NCBI GenBank assembly: GCA_958413985.1
Contig: CATYVZ010000006.1
Coordinates: 2,072-66,071 of the forward strand
Reading direction: 5' to 3'
Source of the DNA: an uncultured Bacilli bacterium
GTDB lineage: Bacteria; Bacillota_I; Bacilli_A; RF39; UBA660
Length of the DNA: 64,000 bases
Of the stretch, positions 4,140-55,131 are shown piece after piece. Both the position numbers and the translations under genes were made by a program. Under the pieces are notes generated by a model. It did not search any database. It had not been told where the DNA came from and saw nothing but the letters and a program-made list of their open reading frames with translations. Position 1 is the first letter of the stretch; every line of letters starts with the position of its first letter.

Positions 4140-4300
4140 TTAAAAAAAGTCCAAGAATGCGGGCCCTTAACGATAAAACCTAGTCTCTACCAGGTGGGCA
4201 TCACATCGTCAACTTTAGGATTCTCAAAATTAATTGAGCTTTCAACACCGTCGACGAATTAGATTCCCAATATTCGTTAATTAGTCGGTTTTTCTAAATG
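4140..4300. other. GC-rich, non-coding, possibly structured element upstream of the tkt promoter; identity unresolved
   Basis: A local segment of roughly 45-50 % GC (gcgggcccttaacg...ctaccaggtgggcatcacatcgtc...caccgtcgacg) in a background of about 25 % GC. The overlapping + strand ORFs are low-complexity and look spurious. Confidence 0.25.
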
Positions 4301-4407
4301 AGCTTGTCGCTATTCCTAGACATTTATATTATATCATATTTTTTAAATAAGTATACTGTTTATAATCGAAGTTTCATACTTTCCCAAAATGTTAATTATT
4401 TGTTTTA

Positions 4408-36098: not shown

Positions 36099-36317
36099 TT
36101 ATTTTAAATTTTTAATTTCATCTAAAAAAATTTTATCTGGTTTGGTTTTAAATATTTTAGCAATTTTGAAAGCCATACTGTATTTTAAAGTTCTTTGTCC
36201 ATTTTCTATTTGCCAATAATAACATTTACTAATATTTAACTTATCAGCCATCTTTTGATAAGTAAGCCCTTCTTTTTTTCGCAATTCCTGCAATTTTTTA
36301 AAACATGTTTCAGTCAT
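36099..36317 (-). CDS. XRE-family HTH transcriptional regulator (72 aa)
   Basis: HTH_3 motif LTYQKMADKLNISKCYYWQIENGQR. Confidence 0.6.
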   Translation of the reverse strand: MTETCFKKLQELRKKEGLTYQKMADKLNISKCYYWQIENGQRTLKYSMAFKIAKIFKTKPDKIFLDEIKNLK

Positions 36318-36432
36318 AAATTAATCCCTTTCTTTTTTTATTTTAACATATTTTTAACACAAAGTACATATATTAAATGTAGTTGTTTTCTATTTGTTTA
36401 TGAGAAGATTTATTTGAATGACAGGTGATTTT

Positions 36433-36672
36433 ATGAAAATCGATAAAGATGATAACAAATACATATATGTAATTGTCGGTAAGAACATTAAAAGAATTAG
36501 AAAATCAAAAGGTTTAACGCAAGTACAACTAGCTGATTTAGTTAAATATAACGAAGGAACGATCGCTAATATTGAAAACGACAGTTATCAGACTTTTAGT
36601 CTTGAATTTGTCTATGTTGTATCTAAAGAACTTAAAGTTCCTATCGAAGAATTCTTTAAAGATATTGATTAA
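36433..36672 (+). CDS. XRE-family HTH transcriptional regulator (79 aa), divergent from 36099..36317
   Basis: LTQVQLADLVKYNEGTIANIEN HTH. The start at 36433 has an AGGTGA RBS. Confidence 0.55.
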   Translation: MKIDKDDNKYIYVIVGKNIKRIRKSKGLTQVQLADLVKYNEGTIANIENDSYQTFSLEFVYVVSKELKVPIEEFFKDID

Positions 36673-36733
36673 CAATCTTTCTTAATTCTTACAGAACAAA
36701 AATATGCTTTCAAATTAGCATATTTTTTAATTG

Positions 36734-38476
36734 TTATAAAATATTGGTCTTATTTTTTATTTCTTCTTTTAGTTTATCGATAAACTCAAGTCTACTAATA
36801 GTGATAGTTTCCTCACTACCTATATGACGATAACTTATTAAATTATCATCAACTTCTTTTTGTCCTAACACCAAAGTATATGGATACTTGTTAATAACAC
36901 TTTCTCTCATTCGATAACCGACCTTTTCTTCGCGATTATCTAGTTCTACTCTGACACCATTGCTAAACAATTCATCGTAAATTTCCCTAGCATATTTTAA
37001 ATGATGTTCATTATTAACTGGAATAATGTTAACTTGAACTGGCGCTAACCAAGTTGGAAATGCTCCCGCATAATGTTCAGTAATGATACCAATGAATCTT
37101 TCGATCGAACCAAAGATAACGCGATGGAGCATGATCGGTCTTTTTTTACTTCCATCACTAGCAACATAGGTTAAATCAAATCGTTCAGGTAGATTCATAT
37201 CTAATTGAATCGTACCACATTGCCAAACTCTTCCTAATGAATCTTTGACATGAAAATCTAATTTAGGGCCATAGAAAGCGCCATCTCCCTGATTGATTTT
37301 GCATTCTTTACCTGTTTTCTTGCAAGCTTCTAACAAAGTTTTTTCAGATTTGTCCCAAACCTCAATACTGCCGATATATTTACTAGGACGAGTCGATAAT
37401 TCGATCGTATAAGATAAATTAAATATCGAATAGATGCGATCGATAAAATTGATTAATTTAATTATTTCTGATTCGATCTGTTCTTCCGTCATAAAAATAT
37501 GGGCATCATCTTGCGTAAAAGTTCTTACGCGAAATAGTCCATTTAAAGCCCCGCTTGCTTCGTGGCGATGAACAAGTCCTAATTCACCCATTCTTAAAGG
37601 GAGCTCTTTATAGGAATGTAAACCATTTTTATAAACTAACATACCACCTGGACAATTCATCGGTTTAATCGCAAATTCTTTTTCATCGATTAAAGAAGTA
37701 TACATATTTTCTTTGTAATTAGCCCAATGACCAGATACTTCCCATAGATCACGGTTCAACATAATTGGTGTTTTGATAAATAAATATCCTTCTTTAGTAT
37801 GTTCTTGATACCAAAAGTCTTCTAACTCTTTTCTTAGAACCATTCCTTTAGGCAACCAAAAAGGAAATCCCGGACCATATTCACTAAACATAAATAATCC
37901 TAAATCTTTACCTAATTTTTTGTGATCACGTTTTTTAGCTTCTTCTAAATAGTTTAGATGTTCTTGTAAAGCTTCTTCTGTGTCAAAACAAACGCCATAG
38001 ATTCTTTGAAGCATTTTATTTTTTGAGTCGCCTTTAAAATAAGCACCACTTACTTTAAGGAGTTTAAAGTTTTTAAGTAACTTAGTACTTTCGACATGTG
38101 GTCCTTTGCAAAGATCGGTAAAATCTCCTTGTGTATAACAAGAAATGACTGTATCATCACTCATATTGTTAATTAAGTCGATTTTATATGGATCATTTTT
38201 AAACAATTCCAAAGCTTCTTCTTTTTTTAATTCTTCACGATAAATTCGCTTGCCATCCTTAGCAAGTTTTTTCATCTCTTTTTCGATTTTTTCTAGGTCT
38301 TCTTCTTTAATTACTTCATCACCTAAATCGATATCATAGTAAAAACCTTCTTCGATAACCGGACCAACCCAGAATAGAGCTTTAGGATATAAATGTTTAA
38401 CGGCTTGCGCTAAAAGATGTGCACAACTATGATTTAAAATATTTAATTTTTCATCTTCTTTGATATTTTTTAACAT
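36734..38476 (-). CDS. thrS: threonyl-tRNA synthetase lacking the N-terminal TGS (N1) domain
   Basis: It begins at the editing-domain HSCAHLLAQA motif. Class II motifs and the anticodon-binding domain are present (580 aa). Confidence 0.85.
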   Translation of the reverse strand: MLKNIKEDEKLNILNHSCAHLLAQAVKHLYPKALFWVGPVIEEGFYYDIDLGDEVIKEEDLEKIEKEMKKLAKDGKRIYREELKKEEALELFKNDPYKIDLINNMSDDTVISCYTQGDFTDLCKGPHVESTKLLKNFKLLKVSGAYFKGDSKNKMLQRIYGVCFDTEEALQEHLNYLEEAKKRDHKKLGKDLGLFMFSEYGPGFPFWLPKGMVLRKELEDFWYQEHTKEGYLFIKTPIMLNRDLWEVSGHWANYKENMYTSLIDEKEFAIKPMNCPGGMLVYKNGLHSYKELPLRMGELGLVHRHEASGALNGLFRVRTFTQDDAHIFMTEEQIESEIIKLINFIDRIYSIFNLSYTIELSTRPSKYIGSIEVWDKSEKTLLEACKKTGKECKINQGDGAFYGPKLDFHVKDSLGRVWQCGTIQLDMNLPERFDLTYVASDGSKKRPIMLHRVIFGSIERFIGIITEHYAGAFPTWLAPVQVNIIPVNNEHHLKYAREIYDELFSNGVRVELDNREEKVGYRMRESVINKYPYTLVLGQKEVDDNLISYRHIGSEETITISRLEFIDKLKEEIKNKTNIL

Positions 38477-38948
38477 AATCTTTCCCTCCTAATTCATCTA
38501 TTTTCGATGATTTGTTAATTTCATCTAAAAGATCGATTGTTAATTCAATTTGTCTTTTTTCATACAGTAAAACCTGCATTTTACTCCACAAACTGATCAA
38601 CTTTGACAACTGATCTAAACGAACTTTTTTAAGTATTTTTATCTGTTCATCGATCGCTTCTAATTTTTCTAGTTTTCGTAATTCATCGGGATTAACGTAA
38701 GGAGCAATATTGTTGTAGCGATCGGTAACTAAAATGATTTTATTTGTCAATATTAGTTCCCGATTAGTCGAAGCAAACTCATAAGAAACAGTTACGACAT
38801 AAGGATTGTTAAAACTTTTTAAATCACGATGCGTCAATTTTTGACAATTTATGGTAATACCGTCATTTAAATAAAAAGTCACAAAATCACTGATACTAAT
38901 CGTATCTTTTTTTCTATCGAAAATATTTAAAGTTTTTTTGTTTTTCAT
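38451..38948 (-). CDS. hypothetical protein (165 aa) between the T-box leader and thrS, overlapping thrS by 26 nt
   Basis: ORF with an AGGGAG RBS immediately after the T-box terminator. No recognisable domain. Confidence 0.4.
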   Translation of the reverse strand: MKNKKTLNIFDRKKDTISISDFVTFYLNDGITINCQKLTHRDLKSFNNPYVVTVSYEFASTNRELILTNKIILVTDRYNNIAPYVNPDELRKLEKLEAIDEQIKILKKVRLDQLSKLISLWSKMQVLLYEKRQIELTIDLLDEINKSSKIDELGGKDYVKKYQRR

Positions 38949-38954
38949 ATACTA

Positions 38955-39185
38955 CTCCCTAAAAACAAAACACTCCTTTAAAACCAAGGAGTGTTTAAAC
39001 ACGGTACCATCCTAATTACGACTTAATTAAAATAACGGCTTTACCCGGAAATCTCTTTCGAGCTCTACTCATAGGTAGTAATTTTTAAACATCGTTTATT
39101 GGTCTTGCACTATCACCAACTCGCTAATAACTAATTTTAAAAACCATGTCCTAATCAACGTATTTAATTATATTCTAACACAAAG
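38955..39185 (-). promoter_or_regulatory. T-box riboswitch leader; candidate specifier ACC (Thr)
   Basis: Minus strand carries AATTAGGATGGTACCGTG (T-box consensus AATTAGGGTGGTACCGCG), then the terminator AACACTCCTTGGTTTTAAAGGAGTGTTTTGTTTTT. An upstream stem-I-like region has ...GCAAGACCAATAAA... A TTGACA-17-TAGAAT promoter lies at ~39171..39199. Confidence 0.6.
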
Positions 39186-39195
39186 ATGTGATTTG

Positions 39196-40452
39196 TCAAT
39201 AAGTATTTACTTTTAAATTATAATTATTTACCACTTTATCAGCTTGGTCTTGTGGAACTGTTATAGTGTCTTTATCACCATCTGATATATAACGGTTACC
39301 TTCTAATATTTTAAAATTCATCTCGATATCAAATTCTACACCATTGTTATCATATGCTCTGATCCTTTTAAGGAAAGTTGGATCGAATTTTGAACTAAAT
39401 GGCGAATAATCGGCTTCCCAACCAACTCTTAAAGTAGAGATGGTTTGATAGGTCTTATCATTATAGCTTCCATTTAAAATAGCACTGAAATTACTGTGAT
39501 CTTTATCGTATGGTGAGCCAAAAGGAAGAGCGACAATATTGACATATTTATTAGGAATGTATTTATCTAAAAGGTTATAAACGCTACCGATTTCATAAAC
39601 GGCTTTTTCTTTTGAAATGGTCGTAAAATCAGCATGAGAATAGCTATGATTACCAATATCATAACCATTGTCGACTAACCAATTTAATATTTTTTCATTA
39701 TATTGACTCTGTTGGAACAAGCCACCGTTTACAAAAAACGTTGCCGTCACATTGAAATCTGGATATTTCTTCTTAAATTGTTCTAAAACGCCAACCGCAG
39801 AATTAGGATCGATAATAATATTACCTTCTTCGTCTAATCCTGTTACTTTAATGTTGTTTTCTAAGCCATCGTCAAAAGTTAAAATAATTGGACTATATCC
39901 TGCTTCGACATCGATAATGCCATTGACATAGTCTTCTAGCCTGATCATTCGATAGCCACTGTTATAATAAAACTCTAAATCTTTAGCAAATGCGTCTTTG
40001 GTTCTTTGATAACCATCTTTATCGACGTTACCTCCAGTATATTCATTGTTGTCAATATTGTGAATGCCATGGTACATCATGATTGGAACATTACCTAATT
40101 CGTTTACCTTTAATTCTTCATAATTGATACCTAAAGAAACATACACTGTTAAAGTATCATTTTCTTTTATTTCTGTGTTAACAGCAATACTCTGTTTAAA
40201 AATCTTATCCTTTTCGACAATATTGTTTTGTTCTTCTAAAACTAAATTTAATTTGTGTTTATCAGCAAATTCTTTAGCCTCTAAAGCGGTTTTACCGGTT
40301 AGATCGATCATAAGAGTAGCTTCGTGATGCGGAACCAAAAAATAAATTAAGGCAAATACTATTATTATTAGAATAATTACTGCTAATAAAACACGGTTAA
40401 CATTTATTTTTCTTTTCATACTACCACCAATAGTTATTATACACCCAATCAA
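39196..40452 (-). CDS. membrane-anchored polysaccharide deacetylase (NodB homology; PdaA-like)
   Basis: TFDDG, ...HSYSHADF... motifs and an N-terminal TM. Confidence 0.65.
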   Translation of the reverse strand: MIGCIITIGGSMKRKINVNRVLLAVIILIIIVFALIYFLVPHHEATLMIDLTGKTALEAKEFADKHKLNLVLEEQNNIVEKDKIFKQSIAVNTEIKENDTLTVYVSLGINYEELKVNELGNVPIMMYHGIHNIDNNEYTGGNVDKDGYQRTKDAFAKDLEFYYNSGYRMIRLEDYVNGIIDVEAGYSPIILTFDDGLENNIKVTGLDEEGNIIIDPNSAVGVLEQFKKKYPDFNVTATFFVNGGLFQQSQYNEKILNWLVDNGYDIGNHSYSHADFTTISKEKAVYEIGSVYNLLDKYIPNKYVNIVALPFGSPYDKDHSNFSAILNGSYNDKTYQTISTLRVGWEADYSPFSSKFDPTFLKRIRAYDNNGVEFDIEMNFKILEGNRYISDGDKDTITVPQDQADKVVNNYNLKVNTY

Positions 40453-40490: not shown

Positions 40491-40661
40491 ATGTTCAGAA
40501 GATGGAACCGTGGTACATGGTCGATCTGTTTATGTATCCTCGTTATTATTTTTTGTTGGCAAGTATTTATAACCTTCTTTATAATCACAAGATTTAATTT
40601 GTTTTTATTGTTTCTTTTATGGTTATTTATACTATATATCTTGTTTCGCATAATATGGTGA
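40491..40661 (+). CDS. candidate small hydrophobic membrane peptide (56 aa)
   Basis: AGGTGA RBS + 7 nt + ATG. Translates to MFRRWNRGTWSICLCILVIIFCWQVFITFFIITRFNLFLLFLLWLFILYILFRIIW. Not in the ORF track, probably too short. Confidence 0.3.
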   Translation: MFRRWNRGTWSICLCILVIIFCWQVFITFFIITRFNLFLLFLLWLFILYILFRIIW

Positions 40662-41522
40662 AATTAAGCTTTCTGTTTTGAATAAAATATCCATTTCCCG
40701 ACTAATTTCTCTTGTCATTTCATAGACACTTTTATTAAAATCAAGTTTGTCTGGTAAAGTAATTAAAATAAACAAAAGCTTTCTTTCATCTTTTTGTAAT
40801 GGGTAACTTTGTTCATAATGTTTTAAGATTTCTGAAAAATCATAATCTAAAGCATGATGTTTATATAAAACATAAAGATCGAAGATCGGAATTCCAATTT
40901 TTGATTTATCCCAACTGATCAAATAACTACTATCATTTTTTAAAAAATGACTTAAATCTAAATTATTATGTAATACTACTACGCGCTGTTTGGTTTTTTC
41001 TTTAACTAATTCATACCAATTTTCGACTTCGTAAGAGCAAAAGTTCAAAGCATTGAAAACACGCGATATATTGCGAGCCAGAAGATATTCGCTTGGGCTC
41101 ATATAGACATGGGTATCGATAAAGGTTATCATATCACTATAATAACTGTTTAAATATTCAATATTATTTTTAATATCTTCATATATTTGCTTATAATCAG
41201 CAAAATCAACTTCTTTATAATGTGTAGTCTTATTATGTAACAAACTAACTAAAGATATTAGATCTAACATTTTTTGTTCATTTGGATAGTCTAATTCTTC
41301 AATATATTCAATAATGTCATAATCTTCATTTTCCTCGTTGACAGTTTTAGGATAATAATCAAAACTCCGTGATTTTAAATAGTCGAAAATCTTTTTATCT
41401 TTGATATTTTTTTTTACTACAAAACGCCCCATCTGTGTATCAACGATAGTTGCTTTGCCAGTAGTCGTATAGCGATGGGGTTTTATTTGATATTTTTTTA
41501 AAATGTCATTAATTTGCTTCAT
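40632..41522 (-). CDS. CotS/aminoglycoside-phosphotransferase-like kinase family protein
   Basis: 296 aa with a kinase-like fold pattern (...HNNLDLSHFL..., ...DLYVLYKHH...). Weak assignment. Confidence 0.4.
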   Translation of the reverse strand: MKQINDILKKYQIKPHRYTTTGKATIVDTQMGRFVVKKNIKDKKIFDYLKSRSFDYYPKTVNEENEDYDIIEYIEELDYPNEQKMLDLISLVSLLHNKTTHYKEVDFADYKQIYEDIKNNIEYLNSYYSDMITFIDTHVYMSPSEYLLARNISRVFNALNFCSYEVENWYELVKEKTKQRVVVLHNNLDLSHFLKNDSSYLISWDKSKIGIPIFDLYVLYKHHALDYDFSEILKHYEQSYPLQKDERKLLFILITLPDKLDFNKSVYEMTREISREMDILFKTESLISPYYAKQDI

Positions 41523-54788: not shown

Positions 54789-55131
54789 AAATAATACTTA
54801 TAAGCCATGTTCTGTCCTTGATACCAAGGGGCAAACATCTATCTACCATCACTGGTTCTAAAGCAAGTTTTATTCCCTACTTTAAACTCCCCTACCATAA
54901 ATTTGGGTTTCTTGCTTGTGGGGTTTACCGCGTTTCACTCTCCTATCACTAGGAGATTCGTCACTGTGGCACTTTAAGTCTACTTTAATCTAAAGATAGA
55001 TTAGTTCGACGCCGTTAGTTTAAAACTACCATAGGTTATTTTTTCCCTATGCACAATCACTACTACCATTTCAGGATAGTGCAAGCATGGACTTTCCTCT
55101 ATATTAAATACAGCGTTTGCCAAGTATTATT
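54789..55131 (-). ncRNA. rnpB: RNase P RNA, type B (Firmicute type)
   Basis: Minus strand has GAGGAAAGTCCATGCTTGCAC (P4 5' strand), ...AAAGTGCCACAGTGACGAA..., ...GAGAGTGAAACGCGGTAAACCCCACAAGCAAGAAACCCAAATTTATGGTAGGGGAG... and ...GATGGTAGATAGATGTTTGCC...ACAGAACATGGCTTATAAG. These match the B. subtilis rnpB pattern nearly motif-for-motif. The P1 stem is AATAATACTT/AAGTATTATT. Confidence 0.9.

Follow-up and report, generated by a model that had tools for sequence, protein, structure and literature searches.

T-box control of threonyl-tRNA synthetase (ThrRS) genes is classical, with the thrS and thrZ leaders of Bacillus subtilis as a familiar point of reference, and all ThrRS enzymes characterised so far are, to our knowledge, homodimers built from a single polypeptide, in which the role of the N-terminal N1 (TGS) domain is still poorly defined. 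The locus described here lies on the minus strand of a 64-kb stretch of DNA (hereafter the window, meaning the whole stretch that was analysed; GC content 28.5%) from contig CATYVZ010000006.1 of an uncultured Bacilli bacterium of the RF39 lineage. It comprises, in order, a promoter, a T-box leader, a terminator, an open reading frame (ORF) for a protein of 165 amino acids (aa), and a 580-aa thrS gene whose product is devoid of the N1 domain. The leader, the 165-aa ORF and thrS form one two-cistron transcription unit, gated by a Thr-specific (ACU) T-box attenuator. What is new here is a conserved, unannotated protein family encoded between T-box and thrS and coupled to thrS; no literature description was found of this family, or of a gene in that position. 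A lack of N1 in a ThrRS probably has precedents, and TGS domains are reported for only some of 14 Mycoplasma species (PMC3155973).

The leader matches the Rfam T-box model RF00230 over its full length (model positions 1-219), on the strand of the regulated genes, as the original prediction from the sequence of this region had proposed. The score is 79.8 bits, with E-values of 8.6e-18 for the leader alone and 1.2e-15 for a covariance-model search of both strands of the whole window, in which this is the only T-box. Because the score is below the curated Rfam gathering score of 93 bits, a default Rfam scan reports just the RNase P and 6S RNAs of the window. Among the orthologous leaders in relatives, whose loci are numbered L001 onwards, that of L010 scores 95.6 bits, above the cut-off, and the others 66-91.5 bits. 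Covariation was examined in 17 leaders from close and distant relatives, and 17 of the 30 pairs of the RNAalifold consensus show compensatory double changes that preserve pairing. The specifier codon, originally read as ACC, is ACU: together with the A that follows, it is the sole unpaired stretch between the upper and lower covarying helices on the 3' side of Stem I, and it occupies the slot of the Rfam alignment for the codon and conserved purine beside the CCUA helix, with thrS as the downstream gene. The 'ACC' consists of that purine and the first two bases of the helix. TTACTAC is invariant in 17/17 diverse leaders, and the ACU codon also in 15 close ones. Since ACU and ACC are both Thr codons, the amino-acid assignment stands.

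At the T-box bulge, AGGATGGTACCGT is invariant in all aligned leaders of the close and diverse sets, and its UGGU is the part expected to base-pair with the NCCA end of the tRNA. The terminator expected behind the T-box was also found, as an 11-bp stem followed by a U-run. Its 5' arm, ACACUCCUU, serves in the model alignment as the 3' arm of the antiterminator, which is made of AGGAUGGUACCGUG and this common arm, and the two structures are mutually exclusive. No tRNA-Thr gene was detected in the window or in the three relatives' loci scanned.

The first gene behind the leader is, as foreseen, not the synthetase but the 165-aa ORF, which has its own Shine-Dalgarno (SD) sequence, AGGGAG, and overlaps thrS by exactly 26 nt, the coordinates agreeing with those given earlier. 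The ribosome-binding site and start codon of thrS lie within the last 40 nt of the 165-aa cistron, where the SD of thrS, AGGAGGG, encodes the conserved LGG of the protein tail. In the close family, the DNA that encodes the tail ELGGKxYVKKY(QRR) also holds the SD, ATG and first codons of thrS, and the conservation of the tail is probably due to this overlap. The placement of the thrS SD and ATG inside the upstream ORF points to translational coupling. A frameshift fusion of the 165-aa ORF with thrS was considered and rejected: most overlaps are in one phase, but that of L018 differs, and since no fused protein occurs among the best 150 homologous clusters either, simple coupling is preferred.

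The 165-aa ORF is a genuine protein-coding gene, and its product belongs to a previously unannotated, deeply conserved family. Its close homologues form 31 clusters, all full length, and a profile search gave 163 clusters (50% identity) at E <= 1e-3 among 1.8 billion representative proteins. Conservation extends over the full length down to ~25% identity, and pairwise dN/dS values are 0.07-0.36. The best 150 of the 163 clusters have lengths of 37-350 aa, and thus none of those is fused to a ThrRS; a second protein search with a broad alignment (A3) added almost no further homologues. The window protein matches no Pfam, NCBIfam or PHROG family, and across 52 family members no Pfam or NCBIfam model is matched consistently, with no match to TGS, YtxC, tRNA_SAD, YbaK or helix-turn-helix (HTH) models of these collections. 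A look-up of the homologous clusters returned no names, and a profile search of PDB sequences with the family returned coiled-coil noise only. Also rejected were a free-standing editing factor of the AlaX / ThrRS-ED or YbaK kind, for want of a tRNA_SAD or YbaK Pfam match in the family, and a YtxC-like sporulation protein (PF08812 / TIGR02834), which none of the 52 members matches in Pfam or NCBIfam.

The AlphaFold2 (AF2) model of the 165-aa protein, computed from a 52-sequence alignment, has a pLDDT of 87.8 and a pTM of 0.81; a model based on just 20 close homologues gave a pLDDT of ~60 for the N-domain and was set aside. The predicted structure consists of an N-terminal alpha/beta domain of ~85 aa, in which residues 16-85 form a short strand, several helices and a beta-hairpin, and a C-terminal long antiparallel helical hairpin (residues 87-108 and 115-143). 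Residues conserved across the family are Y26, L27, H40, L43, K44, V74, D76, Y84, N86 and P87. Foldseek searches with the complete model, in which the N-domain was not queried alone, gave best E-values of 1.4 in the PDB and 0.33 in BFVD.

The product of thrS is a threonine--tRNA ligase at equivalog level (TIGR00418, 727.7 bits vs a cut-off of 383.65), with the class II core (PF00587), the anticodon-binding domain (PF03129) and the tRNA_SAD editing domain N2 (PF07973). A Pfam scan detects no TGS domain (PF02824) in it, residues 8-576 align to 67-642 of the Staphylococcus aureus enzyme (1nyq) and residues 5-576 to 62-635 of the Escherichia coli enzyme (1qf6), and no in-frame room for an N1 domain is present upstream of the start. 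The editing motifs HSCAH and CKGPH are both found in the translation, and the protein lacks only the N1/TGS domain. The absence of N1 was part of the original prediction, which also placed the thrS start exactly at HSCAHLL; the start lies 15 residues earlier, at a point that in full-length enzymes belongs to the N1-N2 linker. A protein search with the ThrRS N-terminus returned just N1-less fragments from contig ends.

The arrangement is conserved well beyond the window, and the 165-aa ORF was found in every relative examined, the comparison that the original prediction had named as a check. The close set comprises 14 genome loci, from metagenome-assembled genomes labelled uncultured Bacilli or Tenericutes and from Candidatus Faecisoma merdavium. 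NCBI places Candidatus Faecisoma in Mycoplasmatota, and in the GTDB it belongs to order RF39, family CAG-822 (PMC8035907). All 14 of these RF39-type loci have the order leader, ORF and thrS, with an overlap of 17 or 26 nt. T-box, ORF and N1-less thrS are kept in that order in twelve distant loci (L015, L017, L018, L020, L022, L027, L028, L030, L031, L034, L035 and L036), with family members of ~25-42% identity that overlap thrS by 8-47 nt or are separated from it by a gap of 1-5 nt. Of the 16 resolved lineages, which reach down to ~25-35% identity, 15 have the family gene no more than ~1 kb upstream of a thrS without N1, and in 13 it is part of the T-box unit, as a rule with an overlap at the start of thrS; every thrS seen adjoining a family gene is N1-less. 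The upstream flanks vary by lineage (the PASTA-deacetylase gene, tRNA genes, dnaI, or the gene X for an unannotated 600-700-aa protein), as do the downstream flanks (rlmN, infC or an mnmA-like gene), and since T-box, ORF and thrS stay together while the flanks differ, the trio travels as a unit.

Table 1. Positions of the thrS unit and its neighbouring features in the 64-kb window.
Feature	Position	Strand	Basis
PASTA + polysaccharide-deacetylase gene, 418 aa	39196..40452	-	ORF list, Pfam
Sigma-70-type promoter, TTGACA-16 nt-TAGAAT, TG-extended	39172..39199	-	consensus scan, 11/12 matches
T-box leader: Stem I (K-turn, specifier loop), Stem III, antiterminator	38984..39167	-	RF00230 full-length match
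Specifier codon ACU (Thr), then purine A (39076) and CCUA helix strand	39077..39079	-	Rfam alignment
Conserved T-box bulge UGGUACC	39003..39009	-	Rfam alignment, sequence
Intrinsic terminator: 11-bp stem, 7-nt loop, U-run	38968..38996	-	terminator scan
SD of 165-aa ORF, AGGGAG, 6 nt before ATG	38955..38960	-	sequence
165-aa protein, unannotated family	38451..38948	-	ORF, homologues, dN/dS, AF2
SD of thrS, AGGAGGG, inside 3' end of 165-aa ORF, 7 nt before thrS ATG	38484..38490	-	sequence
thrS, 580-aa threonine--tRNA ligase without N1/TGS	36734..38476	-	TIGR00418, Pfam
A/U-rich 11-bp hairpin between convergent thrS and HTH genes	36698..36727	.	-11.8 kcal/mol, z -2.4

The reading that we favour, with a probability of roughly 0.5, is that the 165-aa protein represents a new ThrRS-linked family, co-regulated and translationally coupled with the synthetase, whose genomic context suggests a function connected to ThrRS. 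By the established T-box mechanism, accumulating uncharged tRNA-Thr would pair both with the ACU codon and with UGGU in the bulge and would stabilise the antiterminator, and the 165-aa ORF and thrS would then both be transcribed; through the overlap, the 165-aa protein and ThrRS would be made together by translational coupling. The 165-aa protein may work with the N1-less ThrRS, bound to it as an accessory subunit or acting as a factor directed at tRNA-Thr or ThrRS, and may cover the role that N1 has in other bacteria. A co-regulated accessory factor was among the possibilities raised in the original prediction; the deep conservation of the gene pair adds to its case, while the function is suggested by genomic context only. 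A bolder proposal, which we hold to be unlikely, is that ThrRS in RF39-type and related uncultured Bacilli is heteromeric: a subunit of new fold, encoded by its own gene and unrelated to N1/TGS, would have taken the place of that domain, would be needed for normal tRNA-Thr charging or editing and would be made in step with the enzyme via T-box and coupling. The 165-aa protein is a concrete candidate for a new synthetase partner and, if this is true, a handle on N1 function. T-box specificity is an accepted guide for the annotation of genes without assigned function (PMC2494555), and the 165-aa family thereby gets its first functional hint. The family belongs to abundant uncultured gut bacteria (RF39 and relatives).

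Several observations weigh against a partnership with ThrRS, which is a hypothesis by guilt-by-association, drawn from gene context alone. Two lineages (L025/L026 and L037/L038) carry the family gene just upstream of the promoter and T-box, and in a third (L029) it has no T-box or thrS nearby, following the 600-700-aa protein gene and preceding a gene whose product has, by eye, a SpoIIIAH-like N-terminus; these exceptions mean that the family gene can be expressed outside the T-box unit. Where it lies upstream, other ORFs, of 108 aa (L025 820-1146) and 103 aa (L037 1074-1385), take the place between T-box and thrS and overlap the thrS start; they have no Pfam match and no blastp similarity to each other or to the 165-aa family, and some coupled ORF precedes thrS in every resolved junction of the clade. 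The genes dnaB (DnaB_2) and dnaI are found upstream in five distant loci (L018, L020, L031, L035 and L036), so that part of the linkage could be inherited gene order. While the window protein is basic (pI 9.35), pI values in the family range from 4.8 to 9.6 with many acidic members, and a general RNA-binding character is thus not supported. Some Mycoplasma ThrRS are ~564 aa long, short enough to lack N1, and if such N1-less Mycoplasma are also without the 165-aa family, the partner is not obligatory. The main rival explanation, which we judge rather unlikely, takes the 165-aa protein as a positional hitch-hiker with a job unrelated to Thr charging (for example in replication, the cell envelope or a sporulation-linked process), kept next to thrS by an inherited dnaB-dnaI-(X)-ORF-thrS order and placed behind the T-box by chance; the locus would then amount to a T-box-controlled thrS operon of the usual kind that includes one more conserved hypothetical gene. 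The five dnaB-dnaI loci and the family genes outside the T-box unit in L025 and L037 fit this view, as does L029, where the gene has stayed with the 600-700-aa protein and thrS has been lost, and the B. subtilis order, which we take to be dnaB-dnaI-ytxB-ytxC-thrS, would make an unrelated gene directly upstream of thrS ancestral in Bacilli. Yet where the flanks are reshuffled (the window, L001-L014, L015 and L034) the ORF stays with T-box and thrS and not with dnaI or X, its presence inside the T-box unit in 13/16 lineages and its usual overlap with the thrS start tie its expression to that of thrS, and none of the 52 members has YtxC similarity.

The predicted fold allows a different role, as a nucleic-acid-binding regulator with a winged-helix-like N-domain and dimerisation through the helical hairpin, acting on the operon or on the tRNA and not on ThrRS. 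A strand, 3-4 helices, a beta-hairpin and a long antiparallel hairpin are compatible with regulators that combine a winged HTH with a coiled coil, and the basic window protein would suit such an activity; the idea is nonetheless improbable, given that the 52 members match no HTH family in Pfam or NCBIfam, that the best Foldseek E-value of the complete model in the PDB is 1.4, that many family members are acidic and that the operon already has an RNA-based regulator. The original prediction had also raised the possibility that the ORF is a diverged N1 (TGS) domain of ThrRS, split off as a separate polypeptide. The ORF does sit exactly where the N1 coding sequence would be, next to a ThrRS without N1, and its 'YLNDG' bears a superficial likeness to the 'LPDG' start of TGS. 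This origin is largely refuted, and very improbable, because no TGS match appears in the 52 members at E <= 1, hhalign of the family profile against the E. coli N1 gives a probability of 0.07%, the predicted structure is mainly helical, with one beta-hairpin and the helical hairpin, instead of a beta-grasp, the protein is at least 165 aa long vs ~60 aa for N1, and the best 150 of the 163 clusters contain no ThrRS fusion. Least credible of all is that the ORF is an artefact of annotation in a long leader of thrS, arising by chance or, as was suggested originally, as a leader peptide: an AT-rich genome and the lack of database annotation might make one suspect it, but the conservation pattern refutes it, both in the low dN/dS and in the full-length conservation to ~25% identity, and the ORF's own SD, the 163 clusters and the confident AF2 fold also speak against it. 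The reading of the 165-aa protein as a ThrRS-linked partner is accordingly weighed chiefly against the hitch-hiker.

The relatives' loci also gave some further observations on the family and its neighbours. The 600-700-aa protein, which has no Pfam match, occurs in several distant relatives (L020 2652-4742, L035 1727-3763, L030 674-2275, L029 56-382 and L028 1411-3249, the last of 612 aa). Its gene stands between dnaI and the T-box, but in L029 the family gene follows it directly, without a T-box. The copies from L020, L030, L035 and L029 are homologous by blastp, and the 612-aa L028 protein gave no blastp match; the protein shows no blastp similarity to the 165-aa family and is absent from the window. 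In L021 (82-1166, P0113), a 294-aa family member with an extra C-terminal domain lies behind a truncated T-box, and this domain recurs in the next ORF (common 'ILYPDG...' stretch). The L021 contig ends before any thrS, and the locus is not among the resolved lineages. L024 and L033 were left out as probable assembly chimeras: in the first (93-1178), residues 1-100 of the family protein run into a C-terminus that is rich in Gly and Ser and phage-tail-like, and in the second (886-1808) the sequence of an N1-less thrS stops and that of a different, Bacillus-type thrS takes over.

Around the unit in the window, the -35 hexamer of the promoter (39194-39199) includes the TGA stop (39196-39198) of the upstream PASTA and polysaccharide-deacetylase gene. 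From the end of that gene to the T-box leader no terminator-like site was detected, so transcription that reads through from upstream may likewise come under the control of the T-box terminator. The 296-aa ORF at 40632-41522 (-), which lies two genes before the leader, has no Pfam match at E <= 1e-3. The hairpin behind thrS was not called by the consensus terminator scan and is possibly a weak bidirectional terminator. Just downstream of thrS are divergent small XRE-family HTH genes, at 36099-36317 (-) and 36418-36672 (+), encoding proteins of 72 and 84 aa; a similar divergent pair lies upstream of dnaB in L036 (975-1513), and such a pair could be a switch-like or mobile module. Elsewhere, the window contains a 6S RNA at 4144-4325 (-; 72.5 bits) and a class B RNase P RNA at 54796-55128 (-; 267.4 bits), the latter of which fits a Firmicutes / Mycoplasmatota origin.

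Compared with the B. subtilis thrS and thrZ T-box leaders, the leader described here has the same sigma-A-type promoter, Stem I with K-turn, Thr codon and purine in the specifier loop, conserved T-box bulge and alternative antiterminator and terminator, and it likewise controls thrS. It differs from them in the specifier, which is ACU here and ACC in B. subtilis, in its score below the Rfam gathering cut-off (79.8 vs 93), and in the 165-aa cistron that stands between leader and thrS and overlaps thrS. In its slot directly upstream of thrS, and in the dnaB-dnaI synteny of several distant loci, the family gene resembles ytxC in the gene order presumed for B. subtilis; it is unlike ytxC in the length of its product (165 vs ~281-292 aa) and in lying usually downstream of the T-box, inside the regulated unit.

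The notion of a separate polypeptide co-expressed with a synthetase has counterparts in yeast Arc1p, in Trbp111 and in the editing factors AlaX / ThrRS-ED and YbaK. These are analogies and not relatives: the 165-aa protein resembles none of them in sequence or fold, and has no tRNA_SAD, YbaK or OB-fold match. The closest parallel on the side of the enzyme is the N1-less ThrRS of Mollicutes with reduced genomes. In both, the protein begins at the N1-N2 linker and retains N2 and the catalytic and anticodon-binding domains, and RF39, formerly placed in the Tenericutes, is a related lineage that likewise has a reduced genome. Unlike those enzymes, the ThrRS described here has intact editing motifs, HSCAH and CKGPH, is under T-box control, and is preceded by a conserved, partner-like ORF.

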